From IMG/VR virus record IMGVR_UViG_2585427757_000006: a stretch of 64,000 nt of DNA; one strand, written 5' to 3'. Below, in pieces: positions 1,097 to 60,933 of the stretch. Position numbers and translations under genes: made by a program. The stretch is from a virus. Taxonomy: Duplodnaviria > Heunggongvirae > Uroviricota > Caudoviricetes. Numbering within the stretch: position 1 is the first letter of the stretch; every line of letters starts with the position of its first letter. The notes under the pieces are model-generated. The model did not search any database and was not told where the DNA came from. It worked only from the letters and a program-made list of their open reading frames with translations.

Positions 1097-1275
1097 GTGT
1101 TTTCTCCTTGTTGGTAAGTACTTATCTATCTTAATGGACGCTATAAGGCGCACAATCATTGTGTTCAGGCTGGTGGAAAGAACTTCTCCAGCGTGTGGTT
1201 GATAGCCTTATCAATGTGCATCAGGTGCCAGACGACCATATCTTTGCTTCCAATGCCGCGAGTGTAGATGAAGTG

Positions 1276-1962
1276 TCAACAAAAACTGGCCACCGAGTTA
1301 GAGTTTTTCCAGTATCGATTTTCCGATTCATTTGGGGGTAATCCACCGTTATATTCGTGCGGTCTTAGTGCGCTGTAATATCCAACGATATAGTCCGTTA
1401 TGGCGTGAGCTGCCTCGCTGAAGCTTACGTAACCCACCACCGGCATCCATTCGTTCTTCAGACTCCTGAAGAAGCGTTCCATTGGGCTGTTATCCCAGCA
1501 GTTTCCGCGCCGGCTCATACTCTGCCTGATCTGGTATCGCCACAATAACTGCCGGAACTGCCTGCTCGTATAATGACTGCCCTGATCGCTGTGGAACATC
1601 ACTCCGCCGGGCTTACCACGGGTTTCCCATGCCATTTCCAGCGATTTCATGGTGAGCCTGCTGTCCGGCGAGAACGACATGGCCCAGCCCACTGGTTTTC
1701 TTGCGAACAGGTCGAGAACAACGGCGAGGTACGCCCAGCGCTTACCCGTCCAGATATAGGTCACATCACCGCACCACACCTGATTTGGCTCGGTCACGGC
1801 GAACTGCCGTTCAAGGTAGTTAGGGATAGCAACATGTTCATGACCACCACGTTTATACCGGTGAGTCGGCTGCTGACAGCTGACCAGCCCCAGCTCCTTG
1901 GCAATTTGACGTCCTTTCAGGCCTGGTGACCCACCTAATAACTCTGAGACTGCCTTCAGCAA
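1276..1962 (-). pseudogene. IS3-family transposase OrfB fragment (DDE/integrase core), 5'-truncated; OrfA missing
   Basis: [12 protein letters not shown]...[16 protein letters not shown]...[11 protein letters not shown] core motifs; N-terminal part of OrfB and all of OrfA absent; abuts hsdR stop at 1977. Confidence 0.8.
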
Positions 1963-1976
1963 ACCATCACTCCTTT

Positions 1977-4900
1977 CTACCTACCCACCATTCGTTGCAT
2001 ACTTTGCGTCCACGAGGCTTTAAATGCTGAATCTCCTGCGAACAACTTGTAGAGCTCAAGTTCATCTTTACGGCGTTGCAGCATGATTTCCTTGAGCATT
2101 TTTTCGAAGGCCAAATTTCGATTATGGGGATCTGGGTTGTTTTTGTATTTCGATTCGAAGTCAGGGTGATTGCGGATACTTTCAGCGATGTTCACGAACT
2201 TAACCTTTTGCTCTTCAGGTGTGGCACTCCAGCCCTGGAACCATCGCTCATTAAATGTGCGAATGATTTCATCCAGCGGGTCAGTTTCTTTTTCACCGCC
2301 ATGCACCCCACGTGGGTTCGGATTTTGAGGATCAAGCTCCGCTTCTTGGTCACTAAGTTTAATGCTGTGGTTAAGCTTCACACGTTGCAAACCGTATGAA
2401 CTCAGATCGACAGAATCGAGAAGCTCATCAATAGCATCAGCATCGGGATCTTCCACTTTCAATTTCGGTATTAAAAACTTCAGGAACCAAAACAGTTTTT
2501 CCCAGCTGACCATTTCATAAGGCATGATAGAAGCCATCTGCCCATAGATTTTAACGAACTGTTTGGCTTTAATCTTAAAGTCCACTTTAGCTTCAGCTTC
2601 AAGATCTAGTTCATGGTCAAACCGCGCTGCGGCAATATCAATGATTGGACTGAGTGTCTGGGCGTCTTCATTCTTGAAATAACGCGTCACAAAGTCTTCA
2701 ACTTCATACCACTCGTACACACCGACATCGTCCATTTCATCTTTCAACTCGTGCAGTACGTTTATATCTGTAGCTTGGGACAATGACGTTGCTGTATAGA
2801 AAGGATCGAATGCTGATTGAATATCTTCAACCGAGTTGAAAAAATCCAGGATAAACAAGTCTTCTGTTTTCTTCCCTAGCTTAGGTGCACTGCGATTGAG
2901 CCTAGATAGCGCCTGAACACACAAGACACTGGCGAGCTTCTTATCTACATACATGGCGCAAAGCTTAGGCTGGTCAAACCCAGTCAGATACTTGTTAGCA
3001 ACCACTAAAAGTCGATACTCATCGGTATCAAACATATCTTTGGTATCTGACTCGGCAAAACCATTAATATCTGCTTCGGTATATTCAATACCATCAACTT
3101 CTTTGGTTCCTGAGAAAGCAATGGCAACTTTAAACGGGTTTCCTTGCTCCTCAAGTATTCGCCTTATCGCTTTGTAGTATCGAATGGCCGCCTCAATATT
3201 TTGAGTGACCACCATTCCTTTACCTTTACCTTTGAGCTTTTTCGTATTCACGACATGCGGAACAAAATGCTCCAGCATAATCTCTGCCTTGATATCAATT
3301 GTTTGCTGGCTTCGTTCTACATAAGCTCTGAGTTTTTTCTGCGCCTTTTTGGTATCAAACTCAGGGTTATCAGCAATTGATTTCTCAATCTCATAATAAC
3401 TTTTGTACGTCGTATAATTTGCCAGCACATCCAAGATGAAGCCTTCTTCAATGGCTTGTTTCATCGAATACAAGTGAAACGGCTTGTAAGAGCCATCTTC
3501 TTGGCGTTGACCAAATTTCTCCAAAGTGCTGTTTTTTGGTGTCGCTGTAAATGCCAGGTACGACGCATTCCCGCGCATCTTACGCGATCTCATCGCCTGA
3601 AGGATTTTATCCTGAGCATCTTCTGCCTCTTCGACTTCAGACTTGCCCATCGCTCGGTTCATATTGTCATGCGCCGAACCAGACTGTGAGCTGTGTGCTT
3701 CATCGATGATCACTGCAAAGCGCTTGTCACTAAGATCGGCGATACCATCAATAATGAACGGGAATTTCTGAATCGTCGTTATAATAATCTTTTTGCCATT
3801 CTCCAGCGCCTGCTTAAGCTCAGAAGACTTATTCGCTGGGGCAATAATGTTCTTTACTTCAGAAAACTCTTTAATGTTATCCCGCAGCTGCTTGTCCAAT
3901 AGGCGTCTATCGGTGACCACAATCACAGAGTCAAACAACGGCTGCTCCAAGTTTTTCCCGCCTGCCACATCAGACGAAGCAGGATAGGTTTCAATTAGCT
4001 GATAAGCTGCCCAGGTAATCGAGTTAGACTTACCTGAACCGGCTGAGTGTTGAATTAAGTAAGTCTGACCGACACCGTGCTGGGCGGCATGGTCTACTAA
4101 TTTTCTCACCACATCCAATTGATGGTATCGAGGAAAGAACAGGGTTCGCTTGGGTAATGGATCTTTGCTTGACCCATCCAGACGCACAAAATGCTGAATA
4201 ATATTCGCCAAGCTGTCTTTAGTGAATACTTCTTGCCATAGGTATGCCGTTTTATGGCCAGATGGATTCGGCGGGTTGCCTTGTCCAAGATTGTGACCTT
4301 TATTGAACGGCAAGAAGAATGTACTGCTACCTGATAACTTGGTGGTCATATACACTTCGTCGGTATCGACCGCCATATGCACTAGGCAGCGGCCAAAGGT
4401 CAGCAATGGCTGAGTTGCATCCCGATCATCTCGATACTGCTTTTGGCCGTGATAACGTGCTGTTTGCCCGGTCCATGCGTTCTTCAACTCCAGCGTTATC
4501 AAGGGTATTCCGTTGATAAACAATACCATGTCGATTTCTTGTAGGGGATTTACCATGGAATAGCGCACTTGGCGAGTACAACTAAACACGTTATCTGCAA
4601 AGTTTTGCTTTACCTTCTCACTACTACTTGCCAAAGGGGCTGGATAGAGCAAATTGAAATGAGCATCGTCTACGCTTAGCCCTTTCTTAAGTAAATGAAG
4701 AATGCCATGCTTCTTAATCAGTCGGTCAAATCGTTCGAGTAACTTACGTTGCCAATCTGAGGGGTTGTTCTTTTGCAGTTTGGCCAACTCTACTTCTTGT
4801 GTCTTTTGCAGAAATTGCCAGAAAAAACGTTCATCAATGGCATATTGCATATTAAAGTCACTAGCAGCACCAATGAAGTATCCAGCACCCAGTGACTGCT

Positions 4901-4994
4901 GACTCAGCCCCTCTTTGAGCTCTTCAGTACTGATCCCAGCCAGACATTTCTCAATGGCCGACTCTAATGCTTGTTCATTGGTTTGACTGACCAT
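1977..4994 (-). CDS. hsdR: type I restriction enzyme R subunit (1005 aa)
   Basis: N-terminal nuclease motif [19 protein letters not shown]; helicase motif [18 protein letters not shown]; motif [12 protein letters not shown]; last gene of hsd operon. Confidence 0.9.
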
Positions 4995-5008
4995 AATTGT
5001 AAATTCCC

Positions 5009-59659: not shown

Positions 59660-59739
59660 GGCGTAGTGAGCAACTACACGACTGAAATAGAATCCGAGAT
59701 CTATTGAGACGGTCCTTGTCCCGGATTCATCGCGGGAAA

Positions 59740-60057
59740 TTACTTTGCCCCTTCGCCAGCCGCTTTTTCGTTTTCTTCATCAATCACTTCCATAGCGAAG
59801 GTGAAGATCTGCTGGAGTTGCGGAACGGTCAGTTTTTCAAGAACTTCATCAGGTACTGAAGGGATAACCTTACGAACCAGATCTGCATAAGCTGTCACTT
59901 GCTCAACAGGAGACATGTTCATGAGATCTTTGCCTTCCATCTGCTTGATGGAAACGAACAGACCTACCGTCATTTCAACGATGGGATATTCCTGACCGCC
60001 AAATTTGATGCTTTTCTTCGGAGGCAGAATGGAATCTAGATCGAGTAATTTGGTCAT
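59740..60057 (-). CDS. tail assembly chaperone G-like
   Basis: 105 aa, acidic C-terminus, between major tail protein and tape measure. Confidence 0.6.
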   Translation of the reverse strand: MTKLLDLDSILPPKKSIKFGGQEYPIVEMTVGLFVSIKQMEGKDLMNMSPVEQVTAYADLVRKVIPSVPDEVLEKLTVPQLQQIFTFAMEVIDEENEKAAGEGAK

Positions 60058-60112
60058 TGGTTAAAATCCTTTTAAAAGAGAGGCCCATCCTGAGCCTCTG
60101 CTTAATTACTGA

Positions 60113-60859
60113 TTAATCTGCGGGGTTAATCGTTACTGACTTAGTTGCCTTCTTACCACCGCTATTGCTGGTGAAGGAGATATTTGTAGAACCCTGCGCC
60201 ACACCACGTACCAGACCCGTTTGATCTACCGTGGCCTTTTTCTGGTCTTCGGATTCCCAAACACCGGTTTTGTCTGCGGCATCAGCTGGAGTGATTTCGG
60301 CTGTCAGTTGCACAGTCTCCCCTGCTTTTACAGTTGGAGATTCCTGTTTGATCGACACGGTTTTTACCGGTTTAGGACCGCTCATTTTGCCCAGAACGCC
60401 TTCATCATCCGGGTATGCGCTGAACTGAACAGAGAACACACGAACATCATCAGACTGGTAGGTCATAGTGAAGTTGCCCGCGGTTGCCGCTTTCGGGATG
60501 GTCAACACATAGTCGGTGGTGTCCTGCGGAGTCAGAACCAGCTCCTTCGCCACATCAATCAGGTTAACGCCCTGTGCAGATGTGATCGTGACAGAGCTGT
60601 CATCTTCGCTCAGAGTAGAACCAGGCATCAGGTCAACCATGTTTTGGAGTACAGACTCAGCCAGAGGCGCGGTGATGGTAATGTTGCGCCCCTGAACTAA
60701 TTCGGAAATTACGGTCTGCCCCAACTGATCGACGGTGACTTTCAGCGTTTCAGTGGCTACTTCAACCTGAACACCACCTTTGGTGTAACCCAAATCCACA
60801 CCACCAAACGACACCTTACAGGCACCAAGTTTGATGTTTTTTACATGGGTATTAGACAT
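60113..60859 (-). CDS. major tail tube protein (V-like) with C-terminal Ig-like (Big_2) domain
   Basis: C-terminal Big_2-like sequence TVKAGETVQLTAEITPADAADKTGVWESEDQKKATVDQTGLV; likely start MSNTHVK at 60859. Confidence 0.75.
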   Translation of the reverse strand: MSNTHVKNIKLGACKVSFGGVDLGYTKGGVQVEVATETLKVTVDQLGQTVISELVQGRNITITAPLAESVLQNMVDLMPGSTLSEDDSSVTITSAQGVNLIDVAKELVLTPQDTTDYVLTIPKAATAGNFTMTYQSDDVRVFSVQFSAYPDDEGVLGKMSGPKPVKTVSIKQESPTVKAGETVQLTAEITPADAADKTGVWESEDQKKATVDQTGLVRGVAQGSTNISFTSNSGGKKATKSVTINPAD

Positions 60860-60933
60860 TGATGGAAAACTCCTTTTTCCGTTAATTCTACGCATTCATT
60901 GCGCCAACAGTAAGTATATACTTACCGATTAAC

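Follow-up and report, generated by a model that had tools for sequence, protein, structure and literature searches.

Why should one short AT-rich palindrome recur ahead of so many genes of a single virus? The question is raised by a 64,000-nucleotide stretch of a tailed phage (Caudoviricetes; IMG/VR record IMGVR_UViG_2585427757_000006; hereafter the window), in which an earlier reading of the sequence alone had noticed a recurring dyad—TAAGTA followed by its inverted copy—in at least twelve intergenic regions and had taken it for the element's own promoter or operator, or for an RNA hairpin signal. The explanation that we prefer, at a probability of about 60%, is that the dyads are operators of a dimeric phage-encoded regulator, most probably the helix-turn-helix (HTH) protein encoded at 23155-23541, which would serve as the repressor of a plasmid-prophage. 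We infer protein binding, repression and the identity of the binder from sequence comparison.

Judged from its sequence, the 64-kb window (46% G+C) is an SSU5-like phage-plasmid. Over one 12-kb stretch, identity is 98% with Escherichia phage CMS-2020a, 97% with phage Cyrano (pLF82) and, where alignable, about 79% with Salmonella phage SSU5. The SSU5-like group, to which pHCM2 of Salmonella Typhi and pMT1 of Yersinia pestis belong, is common in clinical Enterobacteriaceae, and papers on phage-plasmids report antibiotic-resistance genes on its elements. Comparisons of the tail protein and of TerL further revealed a very large family of syntenic 100-120-kb siphophages. Cyrano and SSU5 were taken whole as annotated relatives, their plus (lytic-gene) strand corresponding to the minus strand of the window; gene names were transferred from their records, and window open reading frames (ORFs) are our own greedy calls.

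Form and distribution of the dyad

In de novo k-mer counts that made no use of the motif described before, TAAGTA and TACTTA were the two hexamers most enriched in non-coding DNA: outside ORF calls, a fraction amounting to 6.8% of the window, lay 11 of 22 copies of the first (p = 5e-8) and 10 of 20 copies of the second (p = 2e-7). Exact TAAGTA-N0-10-TACTTA pairs occurred six times, compared with 0.02 in dinucleotide shuffles, and TARGTANNTACYTA with at most one mismatch matched 14 times against 0.25 expected, the highest count in 100 dinucleotide shuffles being two. These 14 matches merge into 11 loci, nine of them between ORF calls; the other two fall in a call over-extended at its 5' end (1111) and in a spurious call on the opposite strand (31958), so that we read all 11 as non-coding. 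ATATAA, TATAAG and ATAAGA were also among the enriched intergenic hexamers.

The core proved to be a 14-mer, TARGTA-NN-TACYTA, with a fixed 2-bp centre (four exact copies in the window, five in Cyrano and four in SSU5), and the idealised site is GATAGGTAAGTAnnTACTTACCTATC. A logo of 47 Cyrano and SSU5 loci is symmetric over about 22-24 bp (a-W-a-R-R-TARGTA-nn-TACYTA-Y-Y-w-w-t), with no other conserved element at a fixed distance between 40 bp upstream and 60 bp downstream. The spacers seen are 2, 6 and 10. As the arms consist of 4-bp units (TARG: TAGG or TAAG), a 4-bp slip in register produces the apparent 6 and 10, and in every case these two lengths come from TAAGTAAGTA-type arms read out of register. 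A hairpin model with a variable spacer was accordingly rejected. The short form TARGTARG-nn-CYTACYTA, found at the TerL/portal site and, as GGTAAGCACTTACC, at 23110, holds two overlapping 14-mer registers. In total, the window has 11 strict sites and two or three weak ones (Table 1), Cyrano and SSU5 have about 23-24 loci each (roughly 25 sites in SSU5-like whole genomes) and Rhizobium phage B1VFA has 39.

Much of the sequence-only reading's description of the motif stands: the described sequences are present at all 12 of its positions, and the pattern search that it proposed placed the motif far above shuffles and in non-coding DNA. Its list needs amending in that 23110-23123 is a shorter variant, identical with the middle part of sites like that at TerL/portal, 25968-25990 has two mismatches, and a purported thirteenth copy in the 37328-37382 hairpin is degenerate, whereas a site at 784-801 and a half-site at 31081-31106 had been missed; its spacer of 0-8 nt gives way to the fixed 2-bp centre. 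Placement upstream of minus-strand starts also holds—in annotated Cyrano, dyads stand 2-130 nt ahead of the corresponding starts and often 0-20 nt past the previous stop. A description of the dyad was not found in the literature searched, whose coverage was incomplete.

All Cyrano 14-mer loci but one lie outside coding sequences, although only 13% of that genome is non-coding; the exception, which is conserved, lies in frame close to where the portal gene ends. Dyads precede genes of the early class (replication, recombination, nucleotide metabolism) and of the late class (head, tail, lysis) alike; none is found in opposite-strand units or at several plus-strand genes for maintenance or cargo functions (ParA, integrase, MetRS).

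More distant members of the family carry the dyad in forms of their own. The 39 loci of B1VFA (59% G+C) are intergenic and read TAAGTAAG-nn-CTTACTTA or TAAGTAA-N4-TTACTTA, and metagenomic relatives with 58-65% TerL identity each have a separate variant, in several copies per 20-kb locus. AAGTCAC-nn-GTGACTT is the commonest; others are CAGTCA..TGACTG, TAGTCAAAA.TGACTA, TAGTAAG..CTTACTA, AAGTAAG..CTTACTT and AAGTGAGC..GCTCACTT. The variants recur at orthologous positions (the TerL/portal and post-capsid gaps, for example), and 122 non-identical family sites share the common denominator xAGT[C/A]Ax-NN-xT[G/T]ACTx. Within a genome the arms are uniform, and between lineages both alter together, as would be expected if a phage-encoded dimeric binder co-evolved with its sites. 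Pseudomonas phage nickie, syntenic over its whole genome, has no such dyad, and its TerL/portal junction has the promoter CTTGCA-18-TACCAT without one. Exact matches to AGTMANNNNTKACT number 16 per 50 kb in B1VFA and four in RHEph10, compared with zero in nickie and in Stenotrophomonas phage BUCTxx99, which is fully syntenic too (at most 0.1 expected in each). A collection-wide search with GTAAGTANNTACTTAC gave mostly chance matches among 2.9 million contigs, though it did expose GC-rich relatives.

Is the palindrome read as DNA or as RNA? Watson-Crick pairs between the arms of the 47 Cyrano and SSU5 sites numbered 324, against 341.8 +/- 9.4 when right halves were re-dealt among sites, and those of B1VFA 292 against 287.5 +/- 4.5 (counted by a scripted compensation test, a MAFFT alignment of the 26-bp sites having slipped by 4 bp and been left unused). 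For the 47 sites, re-dealing thus yielded at least as many pairs as were observed, so that changes in one arm go without matching changes in the other. Mispairs were G·T, which a sense RNA would tolerate, in 61 cases and A·C in 58, with no bias toward G·U. Folded as RNA, the 11 window copies ranged from 0 to -8.3 kcal/mol; four were no better than shuffles and only two clearly better. A search of the window against Rfam at the gathering threshold returned three tRNAs and no match to the dyad. At the major tail gene, AGTATATACTTA is invariant in 47 distinct relatives while its flanks drift, and in some relatives the left arm reads TGAGTA or TAAATA beside an unchanged right arm; at the TerL/portal site, R/Y positions vary independently between the arms, giving A·C mismatches. 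Lack of compensation, near-equal G·T and A·C counts and mostly weak folds together point to a DNA site for a dimeric protein rather than a hairpin.

Some 5' untranslated regions (UTRs) do hold RNA-like structure. GC-rich hairpins lacking a U-tract lie between dyad and Shine-Dalgarno sequence ahead of the major tail, tail-fibre and L genes (minus-strand 5' UTRs, at about 60860-60900, 47470-47505 and 54375-54415, respectively), and their stems change by compensation across relatives (GCGCA/TGCGT, GCACC/GGTGC, GTGTC/GACAC), which indicates that the method detects RNA structure where it is present. They are likely mRNA 5'-end stabilisers; the equivalent hairpin after the capsid gene has a U-tract.

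Sigma-70 elements, where recognisable, overlap the dyad in a register that varies—the dyad lies in the spacer, over the -10 or at +1, or itself supplies the -35. At the TerL/portal and post-capsid gaps of many relatives, the dyad fills the 17-18-bp spacer after (C)TTGACA or CTTGCA, and a TAnnnT element begins at its last T (for example, TTGACA-TAAGTCACTGGTGACTG-TATAAA and, in B1VFA, CTTGCA-ACTAAGTAAGCACTTACT-TACAAT). At the site upstream of ParB, the -10 (TATAAT, TATAGT) comes immediately before the dyad, and at a dozen early-type sites of B1VFA, GCGCTATAA(A/G) stands 0-8 nt before it, with the Shine-Dalgarno sequence right after. Sites that cover now the spacer, now the -10 or +1, with no set distance, suit a repressor and not an activator. 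A -10 or -35 fixed beside the dyad was looked for and is absent from the logos of 47 and of 122 sites; a sigma-70 scan of 20001-40000 gave fewer promoter-like sites than shuffles, only two of them linked to dyads.

A second word, T(A/G)TAAGA(A/T), recurs between genes. Several dyads have it 11-23 nt downstream (20420-20445, 28415-28435 and 31930-31950), and it also stands before parA (around 39260-39290); by its appearance it would be a -10 or extended -10 in sigma-70 promoters of the element.

The HTH gene as candidate repressor

The gene at 23155-23541 encodes an XRE-type HTH protein, a match to PHROG 8, "transcriptional regulator" (E 6.6e-12). Its sigma-70-type promoter is conserved in plasmids of E. 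coli, Klebsiella and Citrobacter and in Y. pestis pMT1, and the block formed by promoter and following dyad is the best-conserved part of a 260-bp intergenic region when compared across HTH homologs 56-66% identical to the protein of the window. The dyad at 23110-23123 is presumed to be the gene's autoregulatory operator. The sequence-only reading was right to remark on a copy upstream of the HTH gene's own start, and the remark proved its most productive lead. Of its wider proposals, the operator is favoured by fixed spacing, by arms conserved as sequence, by their concerted change and by the overlap with sigma-70 elements where these are recognisable; a self-contained promoter is not, as no -10 or -35 stands at a fixed distance and the HTH-gene dyad lies downstream of a complete promoter, and the RNA hairpin finds no support in the comparisons given above.

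CYRAN_45, the Cyrano counterpart, is among the few Cyrano genes expressed in the LF82 lysogen and has been treated as a putative master repressor; ciprofloxacin induces Cyrano (PMC9928086). Set against Cyrano site positions, the genes reported as expressed in that lysogen (PMC9928086) lie largely in units without an upstream dyad.

Among plasmids in PLSDB, the HTH protein was found in 865 and the tail protein in 972. Counts by genus (HTH/tail protein) are near-identical—Klebsiella 348/341, Enterobacter 92/92, Yersinia 63/62, Salmonella 49/49 and Citrobacter 25/25—which makes HTH a core gene of the plasmid-resident elements. BLAST with the HTH protein found no homolog in B1VFA; a profile of five homologs recovered the B1VFA ORF at 94189-94641 (E 1.4e-23) and matched nothing in nickie or SSU5. 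By reciprocal tblastn, the gene is present in all 10 Rhizobium phages (RHEph10 included) and in Klebsiella phage-plasmids, and was not found among Pseudomonas (nickie included), Stenotrophomonas, Xanthomonas or Ralstonia relatives, the absence from BUCTxx99 resting on tblastn alone. It adjoins the CobT operon in B1VFA, RHEph10 and Cyrano; in B1VFA it has an early-type GCTATAAG promoter with no dyad directly after. Lineages with the HTH gene have dyads and lineages without it lack them, with the exception of SSU5. A search of the genome-contig collection for loci related to the HTH protein returned none.

Other candidate binders were rejected: the winged-helix protein upstream of TerS (CYRAN_123) is also conserved in dyad-less nickie, CYRAN_37 has only a weak similarity over 50 aa in B1VFA, and the small partner of ParA has other repeats upstream of parA. 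Among the ORF families lying within +/-10 kb of TerL, screened for presence across 22 genomes, none separates dyad-bearing from dyad-less members, and tblastn found no homologs of P1 Lpa, C1 or Coi.

Under the repressor reading, a dimer would bind some 25 operators per genome in the gaps of the lytic strand, early and late alike, occluding the promoter where the site overlaps spacer, -10 or +1 and perhaps acting elsewhere as a roadblock. One protein would thereby silence the whole lytic programme of a 100-kb virus during its life as a plasmid, and loss or inactivation of the repressor would release that programme.

Several observations weigh against this account. The HTH protein's Pfam matches (HTH_19/HTH_3) are weak and below curated cut-offs, and a PDB sequence search with it gave no solved relative. 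SSU5 keeps about 24 good sites with no HTH homolog; it is without the whole tRNA-to-CobT segment, which holds the integrase and HTH genes, and has been called virulent (PMC5427195), having been isolated as a lytic phage. We assume that the exception reflects a recent HTH deletion in a phage isolated as lytic. The co-occurrence covers about six lineages; for the metagenomic relatives, the analysis covered +/-10 kb around TerL. Recognisable -35/-10 hexamers flank about 20% of the 122 family sites, so that many copies may act away from promoters; many late-gene sites of the E. coli clade have poor sigma-70 elements, which an activator would fit equally well. Relative to gene direction, T occupies position -1 in 80% of family sites and its mirror A 59%, and a pure dimer site would not lead one to expect this mild, directional asymmetry of the flanks. 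Finally, because one motif precedes early and late genes, it cannot alone explain temporal order.

More tentatively, and with rather less confidence than in the operators themselves, the dyad and HTH protein may form an ancient silencing network—one repressor, dozens of operators—of the large family of 100-120-kb siphophage phage-plasmids, from enterobacterial SSU5/pHCM2/pMT1-like members to rhizobiophages and uncultured soil and water phages. Most copies would then be symmetric stoperator-like roadblocks within operons, the variants (AAGTCAC, CAGTCA, AAGTAAG, TAGTAAG) would mark immunity groups, phages that had lost both parts would have become strictly lytic (nickie- and BUCTxx99-like), and those that had lost only the repressor would be virulent, as in the case of SSU5. 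The silence of SSU5-like phage-plasmids and their lytic switch are essentially undescribed in the papers searched; PLSDB holds nearly a thousand records of such elements. With a defined operator, a candidate for the repressor and about 25 sites in the regulon, the account is directly testable; the dyad could also become a sequence marker for predicting immunity groups and temperate or lytic lifestyle in a poorly studied phage family, and a handle for engineering the induction or curing of SSU5-like plasmids. If true, the account would add a second, independent case of the strategy of many operators across a genome, as in P1 and the Cluster A mycobacteriophages.

Activator, RNA and partition alternatives

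The alternative that survives best, though we judge it unlikely, is that the dyad is the site of a phage activator, or the core of a phage-specific promoter class, that switches lytic units on. The late promoters of P1 offer a precedent, as Lpa acts there on a 9-bp inverted repeat near -22 that replaces the -35. Many sites of the E. coli clade are without convincing -35/-10 hexamers; in the spacer-type promoters of relatives, the dyad is centred at about -20; and the P1 late "-22 boxes" AAGTTACTT and ATGTGACTT share the half-sites AAGT/ACTT. Covarying GC-rich 5'-UTR hairpins begin 2-14 nt past several dyads, as if transcripts started there, and the Rhizobium relatives encode a sigma-70-family protein. 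Against an activator, the dyad lies downstream of complete promoters (at the HTH gene and in the GCGCTATAAR class of B1VFA) and inside the spacers of near-consensus promoters that would need none, its distance to -10 elements is not fixed, and nickie keeps its TerL/portal promoter without it. Searches by tblastn found no Lpa homolog, and a sigma factor like B1VFA_132 has no homolog in Cyrano, SSU5 or the window.

Much less probable is that the dyad works as an RNA hairpin, in 5' UTRs or between cistrons, for mRNA processing, stability or translational repression, in the way that hairpins mark the RNase III sites of T7 for mRNA processing. The palindrome does lie within polycistronic units, often directly upstream of the Shine-Dalgarno sequence, two copies fold well (-8.3 and -7.7 kcal/mol, z -6.6 and -2.8), and the element encodes an FljA-family protein (Pfam, 1e-80). 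Beyond the uncompensated arms, the equal G·T and A·C mispairs, the four shuffle-like folds and the empty Rfam search, the geometry is also adverse: the dyad is upstream of the start site of spacer-type promoters, and at most early-class sites of B1VFA the -10 is 0-3 nt from the dyad, which puts the predicted start inside the left arm. B1VFA, moreover, has the dyad and no detectable FljA homolog.

Similarly improbable is a role as dispersed centromere-like or loading sites for a partition-type protein, either ParB-like or the small partner of ParA, with silencing as a secondary effect. A 16-bp palindrome is parS-like in form, and the common variant holds TCAC..GTGA. Cyrano, SSU5 and B1VFA each have a dyad immediately before the ParB operon, the same three have the genes of ParA and its small partner, which nickie lacks, and the partner (38205-38564 in the window) is ribbon-helix-helix-like by eye and expressed in the lysogen. 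Two ParB-like proteins are nonetheless conserved in dyad-less nickie and BUCTxx99, the repeats upstream of parA differ from the dyad (TAGGCAnTTAGGC; GATAGCTA in B1VFA), and the sites are tied to gene starts and promoters genome-wide and are unclustered. The partner itself, of 119 aa, is encoded on the minus strand next to the ParA gene (38564-39232) and carries the annotation RelE/ParE toxin in the Cyrano record. A basic tail, a short strand and two helices can be made out by eye; the protein belongs to PHROG 5111 (function unknown), had no Pfam match and looks like a ribbon-helix-helix centromere-binding protein. B1VFA has a similar small gene beside ParA.

Hardly credible is a dyad with no binding function at all: an all-frame translational stop, a recombination linker or a miniature mobile repeat at gene boundaries. 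Its 4-bp periodic TAR units (TARGTARGTAR) do put stops in three frames of either strand, many copies overlap an upstream stop codon or come immediately after it, and a few substitutions keep a stop (TAA to TGA or TAG). Against this, conservation of the non-coding-strand arm equals or exceeds that of the coding-strand arm, the commonest family variant (AAGTCAC..GTGACTT) does not stop all three frames, a GC-rich (59-64%) lineage retains the AT-rich sequence rather than TGA-based stops, one conserved copy is in frame inside the portal gene, and copies sit at orthologous positions, unlike mobile repeats.

Known counterparts and neighbouring features

By analogy, operators of this sort would resemble the C1 operators of P1 and the stoperators of mycobacteriophages in kind, and would differ from them by palindromy and protein family. 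P1 is likewise a phage-plasmid whose lytic genes lie in many units and whose repressor has one site at many promoters, including its own (Oc1a-e, Olpa and OpmgT in the P1 annotation); we counted about 25-40 dyad sites per genome for comparison. P1 operators are asymmetric 17-bp sequences unrelated to the palindromic dyads, and no C1 homolog was found (tblastn, best E 4.4), the candidate here being a small XRE-type HTH protein. Stoperators, the sites of L5 gp71 in Cluster A mycobacteriophages, are asymmetric 13-14-bp sequences bound by a monomer in one orientation to transcription, and dozens of them lie in the short intergenic gaps of early and late operons, many away from promoters. Many dyads lie in such gaps too, early and late, with lineage-specific variants like immunity groups, but they are symmetric apart from the mild flank asymmetry. 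Cro/CI-type (XRE) repressors, such as those of 434 and P22 (c2), bind a handful of 14-18-bp palindromic operators in one or two control regions. Features in common are the small HTH protein, a palindrome of fixed spacing, a site at the candidate's own promoter and overlap with core promoters where elements are recognisable; differences are about 25 dyads over 100 kb, arms of 4-bp period with overlapping registers in the longer sites, and an HTH protein without an S24 peptidase domain.

In the Lpa promoters of P1, too, a dyad with AAGT/ACTT half-sites lies between the -10 and the position of a -35, spaced AAGT-N1-ACTT in P1 compared with AGT-N8-ACT (family and short form) or AGT-N4-ACT (window 14-mer) here. 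They differ in that no Lpa homolog was found (best E 0.74) and that dyads also lie downstream of the -10 or beside a good -35. KorB-OB of RK2 and the dispersed SopB sites of N15 are palindromes around a plasmid through which a plasmid-encoded protein exerts global control. The dyad, too, is a palindromic site repeated around a plasmid genome, but ParB-like proteins also occur in dyad-less relatives, and dyads, where promoter elements are recognisable, overlap the core promoter rather than lying upstream of it.

Table 1. Dyad sites, the candidate repressor gene and other features of the window
Feature	Position	Strand	Context and remarks
HTH protein gene, XRE-type, 128 aa (CYRAN_45 of Cyrano)	23155..23541	+	Candidate repressor
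HTH-gene promoter, sigma-70-type, TTTACA-16-TAATAT	23081..23108	+	From consensus scan; dyad at 23110 directly after
Short dyad variant GGTAAGCACTTACC	23110..23123		About +1 to +14 of HTH promoter
Dyad TAAGTTAGCATTTACCTA (minus-strand reading)	784..801		Between two small lytic-strand genes; orthologues at Cyrano 59404 and SSU5 58079
Dyad GATAGATAAGTACTTACC	1111..1128		Directly upstream of ribosome-binding site and ATG of small minus-strand gene
Dyad	14071..14088		Between UvsY-like gene (14103-14558) and gp32-like SSB gene (12957-13985); orthologue at Cyrano 52660
Exact dyad TAAGTAGTTACTTA	20453..20466		Between CobT-like (20485-22593) and CobS-like (19154-20389) genes; -10-like TATATAAGAAG 23 nt further on
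Weak dyad, 2 mismatches	25968..25990		Arm forms -35 (TTATCA) of predicted minus-strand promoter TTATCA-17-TATAGT
Dyad, exact 14-mer at 28446-28459	28442..28459		After small gene, upstream of tRNA cluster; then -10-like TATGTATAAGAT
Half-site GATAGGTAAGCA	31081..31106	-	Upstream of minus-strand gene 30601-31083
Dyad	31958..31975		Upstream of gene 31139-31915; extended -10-like TGTAAGAAT 12 nt later, a geometry recurring at SSU5 38179 and 84179
Dyad	37227..37244		13 nt upstream of start of gene 36473-37222
Dyad GATAGGTAAGTACACACCTAC	41863..41880		Upstream of holin/lysis genes (41476-41811)
Dyad, exact 14-mer	47511..47528		Between J-like tail gene and tail-fibre gene; GC-rich 5'-UTR hairpin next
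Dyad	54424..54441		Between minor tail genes M and L; GC-rich hairpin next
Exact dyad TAAGTATATACTTA	60911..60924		Upstream of major tail protein gene (60113-60895); centre is TATACT, 18 bp past TTGAAT
Long inverted repeat	37328-37382		Cyrano 31174, 78094, 108352 (record end); SSU5 33468, 78314, 103273
HsdM	7462-9927	-	Type I restriction-modification island
HsdS	6182-7462	-	Type I restriction-modification island
HsdR	1977-4994	-	Type I restriction-modification island
PDC-S11, PADLOC candidate defence gene	5009-6172	-	Between restriction-modification genes

A long inverted repeat, CCTGCTTCTGTATATA...TATATACAGAAGCAGG, surrounds a degenerate dyad at three places per SSU5-like genome; one copy, where the linear record ends, immediately precedes the small terminase gene. 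Rhizobium-type relatives have an analogous long repeat around a dyad upstream of TerS (L111, about 2840-2910; B1VFA, about 54240-54360). Possible roles are a terminator, a cruciform, or a site related to packaging or replication.

The Rhizobium relatives also encode their sigma-70-family protein (Pfam Sigma70_r2, 4.4e-7) between CobS and DNA polymerase III alpha (B1VFA 98760-99404; RHEph10 39826-40461). About a dozen of their early genes are preceded by a phage-specific element, gtgcNNtccc ... GCGCTATAAR. Protein and element are both absent from the enterobacterial clade.

The type I restriction-modification island of the window, about 8 kb long (1977-9927, minus strand), lies inside the lytic-strand gene array without a dyad, and Cyrano is without the island. 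Three clustered tRNA genes recognised with Rfam (27475-27718, minus strand) correspond to tRNA-Asn, -Thr and -Ser of Cyrano; SSU5 retains only tRNA-Asn and is missing the adjoining segment with integrase and HTH. Outside the window, CYRAN_114, a "transcriptional regulator" (Cyrano 100780-101301; SSU5 96897-97343), is the FljA-family protein mentioned above (Pfam Flag1_repress, E 1e-80) and gives Hfq/LSM-like signals too. FljA is a repressor of phase-1 flagellin whose Salmonella prototype acts on mRNA, and CYRAN_114 may be a cargo gene acting on host flagellin expression.

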